Shown here piece after piece: positions 28,566 through 28,706 of a DNA stretch of 64,000 nucleotides. The translations under genes and the position numbers were made by a program. The notes beneath the pieces were generated by a model. It did not search any database and was not told the origin of the DNA. It saw nothing but the letters and a program-made list of their open reading frames with translations. The DNA lies in NCBI RefSeq assembly GCF_030013205.1, contig NZ_CP122648.1; one strand, 5' to 3'. Positions within the stretch are counted from its first letter, which is position 1, and every line of letters starts with the position of its first letter. The stretch is from Escherichia coli (GTDB lineage Bacteria; Pseudomonadota; Gammaproteobacteria; Enterobacterales; Enterobacteriaceae).

Positions 28566-28706
28566 CAATACTATTAGCCAGTGGCTAACATTGCAAGCGT
28601 TAGCGATTTCTTCAGCTGGCGAAGGGACAGTTTGCTATACATGTTGGTGAAAGAGGATTTATATACTTTCATCGGGTCGCTGCCGTACCAGGCCTTGTCC
28701 GAATCC

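Follow-up and report, generated by a model that had tools for sequence, protein, structure and literature searches.

A decayed fragment of gor lies between the agrA and agrB antitoxin genes of Escherichia coli

Tandemly duplicated type I toxin-antitoxin loci of E. coli include ldr/rdl, ibs/sib, and zorO-orzO/zorP-orzP. The dinQ/agrA/agrB locus, as we reconstruct it here, resembles these systems in the head-to-tail duplication of a toxin/antisense-RNA module of which one copy later became degenerate. It differs in that the agr segment included part of a neighbouring housekeeping gene, gor, and in that the second copy is now reduced to its antitoxin. A second parallel is icd of E. coli K-12, where a duplicated 3' end of the gene flanks the inserted e14 element or phage 21. 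The gor locus likewise features an intact gene, intervening DNA, and a decaying 3'-end copy in direct orientation (hereafter gor'); unlike icd, it has no integrase, att core, or prophage genes, and other genera without the fragment show dinQ-agr in synteny with gor. Finally, gor' shares with ordinary intergenic pseudogene fragments its nature as a direct partial copy, the decay of its frame, fast divergence, and presence/absence polymorphism, but it is unusually small and both dates and delimits the origin of a characterised sRNA pair. The fragment is not mentioned in the original account of the locus (PMC3567139), in the 2016 dinQ/agr follow-up, or in the results of a keyword literature search; it appears to be undescribed, yet of an ordinary kind.

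The window, i.e., the whole 64,000-nucleotide stretch of E. coli DNA analysed here, contains in order arsB (minus strand), arsR (27973-28326, minus strand), an intergenic region of 879 bp (28327-29205), and an intact gor coding sequence (29206-30558, minus strand; RefSeq annotation gorA). The intergenic region houses dinQ/agrA/agrB, an SOS-induced type I toxin-antitoxin locus (PMC3567139). It is 100% identical to that of E. coli strain ST2747 and only 92-94% identical to that of most E. coli, and arsR of the window is about 92% identical to its counterpart in most E. coli. Divergence of this order, in the intergenic region and arsR alike, is unusually high within one species.

The dinQ ORF occupies 29069-29152 on the plus strand (translation VIDKAIIVLGALIALLELIRFLLQLLN), and both antitoxin genes are on the minus strand. 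The agrB repeat unit (28463-28597; hairpin, terminator, sRNA, and promoter; RF02891, 106 bits) contains the sRNA at 28477-28560 (Rfam RF02891 match) and promoter hexamers, read from the sequence, at 28568-28573 (-10) and 28591-28596 (-35), in agreement with the published promoter description (PMC3567139). The agrA unit (28697-28831; small hairpin, terminator, sRNA, and -10/-35; RF02891, 98 bits) contains its sRNA at 28711-28794 (match to the Rfam AgrB model). Together they form a direct repeat with a 234-bp period that is 89.5% identical between 28463-28576 and 28697-28810 and continues, more weakly, up to the -35 boxes at 28591-28596 and 28825-28830; at the other end, the agrA/agrB homology stops at 28697 and 28463. 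A small conserved inverted repeat (gtccgaatccggac / gtctgaatcaggac) lies just distal to each agr terminator (28697-28710 and 28463-28476); in E. coli, E. albertii, and Citrobacter alike, the repeat unit ends exactly there. A third copy of the repeat core is located in the dinQ 5' UTR (28962-28994, plus strand), where it matches agrB at 33 of 33 positions and agrA at 30 of 33; this is the target of the agr antisense RNAs (PMC3567139).

The spacer between agrA and agrB harbors a copy of an internal segment of gor. Local alignment and blastn pair 28636-28688 with 29421-29473 inside the intact gor coding sequence (minus strand) on the same strand and without gaps, with 44 of 53 positions identical (83.0%) and a longest exact run of 18 nt. 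When the 879-nt intergenic region is used as a query against the whole 64-kb window, this match has E = 1.2e-9 and is the only non-agr match with E < 0.004. A sequence-only reading of the window had pointed to a gor-like stretch of ~57 nt at ~80% identity, with identity below 60% as its refutation. The pairwise alignment, at 83%, lies above that threshold and the match is real, although its solid part spans 53 nt rather than 57; the gor coordinates then given (29418-29474) were 3 nt off, and in that register only 14 of 57 positions agree, which is background, against 44 matches after a shift of +3.

The solid core of gor' (28636-28688, minus strand, gor orientation) corresponds to gor nt 1086-1138, i.e., codons about 362-379, and is in the reading frame of gor. 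In complete E. coli genomes without the spacer, a spacer query finds its best match in gorA at query positions 60-112 (equivalent to 28636-28688) with 81-83% identity. That the same segment matches gorA in spacer-less genomes independently confirms its gor origin, and the earlier claim of a gor-derived stretch in the agrA-agrB spacer holds on the strength of both the alignment and this gorA match. The best match of the fragment is Escherichia gor, compared with 75-81% over the full 53 nt for gor of 40 other genera, which identifies the resident gor as its source. Chance similarity is ruled out by an E value of 1e-9 and by recurrence of the match in other genomes; a foreign gor as the source is ruled out by the full-length preference for Escherichia gor and by a present gor 3' part that carries no donor signal. 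Homology to gor is significant, colinear, and in the same orientation, as in a gor pseudogene. The fragment is not a functional coding sequence, as it covers at most about 30 of 450 codons and its frame is not conserved; the window allele holds only a 32-aa ORF (28574-28672).

The fragment begins 8 nt past the agrA unit and lies 76-128 nt upstream of the agrB start. Cross-allele comparison delimits the 8-nt junction between the agrA unit end and the fragment start (28689-28696, caggcctt); its counterparts at this position read taagcctt in the K-12 allele and taaatttt in E. albertii, and the gor homology begins at nt 1085/1086 in all three. In the direction of agrB, a MAFFT alignment gives a tentative extension at 28598-28635 (minus strand; gor nt about 1139-1180, with gaps of 3 and 6 nt) that would reach the agrB -35 to within a few nt in a three-way alignment with a common CGCCAGC block. 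In the K-12-type allele (E69), the alignment covers gor nt 1102-1162 at 74% identity (E = 3e-4); taken alone, the extension past nt 1138 has little statistical strength (shuffle p = 0.26 with the window allele, 0.06 with the K-12 allele). The fragment does not qualify as a member of RF02891; it lies between the two true matches, and the matches that overlap it (28653-28743, plus strand; 24 bits against a gathering score of 40) are sub-threshold and driven by the terminator. In strain FDAARGOS_1287, the fragment and agrA are spanned by a RefSeq/PGAP "hypothetical protein" of 71 aa (WP_000968019.1; 28574-28789, minus strand; 648-863 of locus L160). This call, which carries a gor-derived peptide, is almost certainly spurious, and it exemplifies the false "hypothetical protein" annotations that the fragment yields; its frame is that of the 32-aa ORF of the window.

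Comparison across species covered gor at 80 species loci among the matches listed (E. fergusonii, E. marmotae, and E. ruysiae are not among them) and 74 metagenome loci anchored on dinQ. Among the loci listed, dinQ and agr are found beside gor in E. coli, E. albertii, Citrobacter youngae, C. sp. On2M, and a Citrobacter-like metagenome contig (L147); in Kosakonia sacchari, dinQ and agr are present farther from gor. C. youngae, C. sp. On2M, and L147 have no gor fragment and show the order gor-dinQ-single agr, abutting the yhjA 3' end. E. albertii (L005 and metagenome loci L149 and L150) also has a single agr, orthologous to agrA. There, AGTACGGCGGCAATCAGGT stands 8 nt beyond the agr unit and corresponds to gor nt 1085-1103 (17/19), and after 17 nt more follows gor nt 1324-1353 with its TAA (26/30, E = 2e-5 to 9e-5). 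The identical fragment junction in E. coli and E. albertii argues for a single event, and because E. albertii keeps the stop-codon end too, the original copy comprised approximately the last 269 nt of gor. The two species have since lost different parts of it. Hence the idea of a relic of partial gor duplication stands as to its source and falls short as to its size, the original copy having been much longer and having included the stop codon. The proposed check of conservation in relatives gives a divided answer, with the fragment present in E. albertii and absent in Citrobacter. Judged from the sequences compared, the fragment predates the E. coli/E. albertii split and postdates the split from Citrobacter. 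It is not tied to the presence of two agr copies, as E. albertii has it with one.

The flank of the E. albertii fragment is of foreign origin. Right after the gor' stop, about 500 bp (L005 6931-7431) share 93% identity with E. coli plasmids of ~90 kb on which phage tail genes and higBA are present. Within this stretch lies the end of a gene annotated as phage tail/hypothetical protein, and a HigB/HigA toxin-antitoxin pair comes next (L005 7445-8157); plasmid-like DNA and HigB/HigA stand where E. coli has the ars operon. A hairpin after the E. albertii gor' stop was considered as the ancestral gor terminator, which would have spoken for an insertion in gor, and rejected, as it lies in the DNA that is 93% identical to these plasmids. 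No significant dinQ' remnant was found in the flank when it was compared with gor plus the first ~70 nt of the dinQ region. With foreign plasmid-like DNA directly after the stop codon, E. albertii is uninformative on what once followed gor'.

A neighbour-joining tree of agr units has the form (Citrobacter,(agrB,(agrA, E. albertii agr))), with distances of 0.16-0.19 between agrA and agrB, 0.04-0.07 between agrA and E. albertii agr, and 0.20-0.27 between Escherichia units and Citrobacter; the fragment-gor distance is 0.17. It is accordingly agrA, and not agrB, that is orthologous to the one agr of E. albertii and Citrobacter. This tree and the species distribution place the agrA/agrB split and the fragment on the same branch, and the two paralogue pairs, agrA/agrB and fragment/gor, are equal in age at about 17% divergence. 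Along the minus strand, the gor segment and the remainder of gor are followed by dinQ (antisense), agrA, 8 nt, gor', and agrB, such that gor/gor' and agrA/agrB share order and orientation, with the junction at the repeat-unit end, as in a tandem duplication. A head-to-tail junction is expected at the end of a repeat unit, and the fragment start, 8 nt from 28697, fits this expectation. The suggestion that the relic may record how the agr repeats arose is thereby strengthened: same branch, same divergence, and a junction at the distal end of the agrA unit. The fragment provides physical, datable evidence for an origin of agrA and agrB that had previously only been presumed, and it bounds the event, with gor nt ~1085 at one end and a point shortly after the agr terminator at the other. 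It has no evident physiological role; what it offers is a record of history and evolution.

The data show the gor origin of the fragment, its position, its age relative to the species splits, its original extent, and its lack of conservation, and we read gor' as a non-functional pseudogene fragment of the chromosome's own gor. We consider it probable that a single tandem duplication followed by a deletion, both inferred, left agrB together with the fragment. The ancestor of E. coli and E. albertii would already have had gor-dinQ-agr, like present Citrobacter. A tandem duplication of ~780 bp, which began at gor nt ~1085, took in the gor 3' end, dinQ, and agr, and ended shortly after the agr terminator, would then have generated gor-dinQ-agrA-[gor' nt 1085-1353-dinQ'-agrB]. 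Within this array, the E. coli lineage would have lost ~540 bp by a deletion ending just upstream of the agrB -35, and with them the second toxin gene, the LexA-controlled promoter of that gene, and all but about 55-90 nt of gor'. These 55-90 nt would now precede agrB, the additional antitoxin RNA gene; the arrangement suggests that E. coli gave up the second toxin copy and retained the second antitoxin. E. albertii would have lost dinQ'-agrB and the middle of gor' through other deletions and the insertion of DNA resembling E. coli phage-type plasmids. This model agrees with the sequence-only reading and with the published remark that the agr sRNAs are "presumably tandemly duplicated" (PMC3567139). 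The full second unit (gor' 3' end-dinQ'-agrB) was found in none of the lineages searched (5418 E. coli genomes, 80 listed species loci, and 74 metagenome loci), and gor nt 1139-1353 are present in exactly one copy in each of 5418 matching complete E. coli genomes. Against tandem duplication and deletion stand the 8-nt junction and about 7-15 nt beside the agrB -35, for which the model has no explanation, and a difference between the window and K-12 alleles that is far above that of the flanks, so that simple neutral decay within one species is insufficient.

In the main alternative, foreign or circular DNA carrying a gor 3' part with dinQ-agr could have integrated in gor, by a single crossover or site-specifically, and displaced the old 3' end, which then decayed to the fragment; agrB would derive from a separate, later event. 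The gene-insert-gene 3' fragment architecture fits such an integration, Phytobacter ursingii L028 offers an independent case in which gor nt 1151-1349 are repeated after a 1.4-kb fimbrial insert, dinQ-like genes occur on plasmids (PMC5066626), and no dinQ' follows gor' in E. albertii. We nevertheless regard integration as unlikely. Citrobacter and Kosakonia already link gor-dinQ-agr without the fragment, so dinQ probably predates it, and the present gor 3' part has no special affinity to any donor-like lineage. The interval between gor and gor' holds only dinQ and agrA (about 500 bp), with no integrase, mobile-element gene, or att-like repeat, and a second event would be needed to place agrB past the fragment, though agrB and the fragment are of the same age. 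In a further scenario, a short patch of gor filler (about 55-80 nt) was copied by template switching during repair of a break or of the agr junction, and no larger copy ever existed. E. coli shows only about 53-90 nt of gor, placed exactly at the repeat junction, as a patch would be; E. albertii, on the other hand, keeps a second, non-adjacent, colinear gor piece (the last 30 nt and stop), which indicates an original of about 269 nt, and it has the fragment with a single agr. A templated patch is improbable on these grounds.

Two strongly different alleles of the fragment occur in E. coli. About 810 complete genomes, O157:H7 among them, have the window type, and about 3000 have the K-12 type. 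Compared with gor at the 53 sites, 32 match in both alleles, 12 in the window allele only, 6 in the K-12 allele only, and 3 in neither; 50 of the 53 thus keep the gor base in at least one of the two. Since each allele keeps different gor bases, their common ancestor was about 94% gor-like. The K-12-type allele has a frameshifting 4-nt deletion inside the best-conserved block. Divergence between the alleles in the fragment far exceeds that in the flanking agrB promoter, and the split may come from introgression with a divergent ars haplotype or from patchy conversion from gor. The spacer is absent in about 1590 of 5422 complete genomes (about 29%). Detailed inspection of one single-agr genome, J-8, shows its agr to be an agrB/agrA hybrid, which fits unequal crossing-over between the two agr copies; other spacer-less genomes have larger deletions. 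Two agr copies are present in about 71% of complete E. coli genomes. In other variants of the locus, an agr-dinQ repeat deletion has taken out both promoters, or arsR and arsB are absent and arsC adjoins agr.

The strongly different alleles, the frameshift, and the absence of the spacer in about 29% of genomes leave the fragment with no sign of function. A functional element, either an upstream promoter element of agrB or a plus-strand antisense regulator of gor mRNA, is very improbable. The fragment does lie at -76 to -128 of agrB with an A/T-rich centre, and a plus-strand transcript would hold an 18-nt perfect complement to gor mRNA. That 18-nt block, however, is broken in the majority K-12-type allele by the 4-nt deletion and substitutions, and nearly a third of genomes do without the spacer altogether. 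No promoter-like site was found on the plus strand of 28300-29260 in a crude scan that also missed the known agr terminators, and the agrB terminator region (aaaaaaaccgactttgcgtcggtttttt, 28482-28509), which in the sequence reads as a near-palindrome flanked by an A run and a T run, could stop plus-strand transcripts as well. The dinQ/agr papers report no such role.

The antisense repeat itself contains an 8-nt hypervariable core, located at 28547-28554 in agrB, 28781-28788 in agrA, and 28980-28987 in the dinQ 5' UTR; the strains and species compared show at least 9 alleles of it. In this window and in K-12, dinQ has the same core as agrB. In strain NIPH17_0036 and several metagenome loci it shares the core of agrA and not that of agrB, and where there is a single agr, as in C. 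youngae, L147, and strain J-8, it shares the core of that gene; a perfect match is absent from some genomes. From these core sequences, the cognate antitoxin may differ between strains. As a tentative elaboration, which we think possible but hold with less confidence than the duplication and deletion themselves, the fragment may mark an orphan second antitoxin: the toxin-antitoxin unit and a piece of gor would have been duplicated, the extra toxin deleted up to the agrB core promoter, and the cores exchanged between the three copies (agrB, agrA, and the dinQ 5' UTR), perhaps by gene conversion, such that the cognate agr depends on the strain. If this is true, the cognate antitoxin is agrB in K-12 and the window and agrA in NIPH17_0036 and others, and the statement that agrA is a degenerate non-functional copy is valid for K-12 and not for the species.

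Finally, the gor repeat of Phytobacter ursingii (L028 6446-7420 and 7735-7933) is 99% identical to the gor 3' end and is independent and recent; it is closer to the icd type than is the Escherichia case. It stands behind a 1.4-kb A/T-rich insert with a fimbrial-protein gene, which suggests that the gor 3' end is a recurrent site of insertion or duplication.
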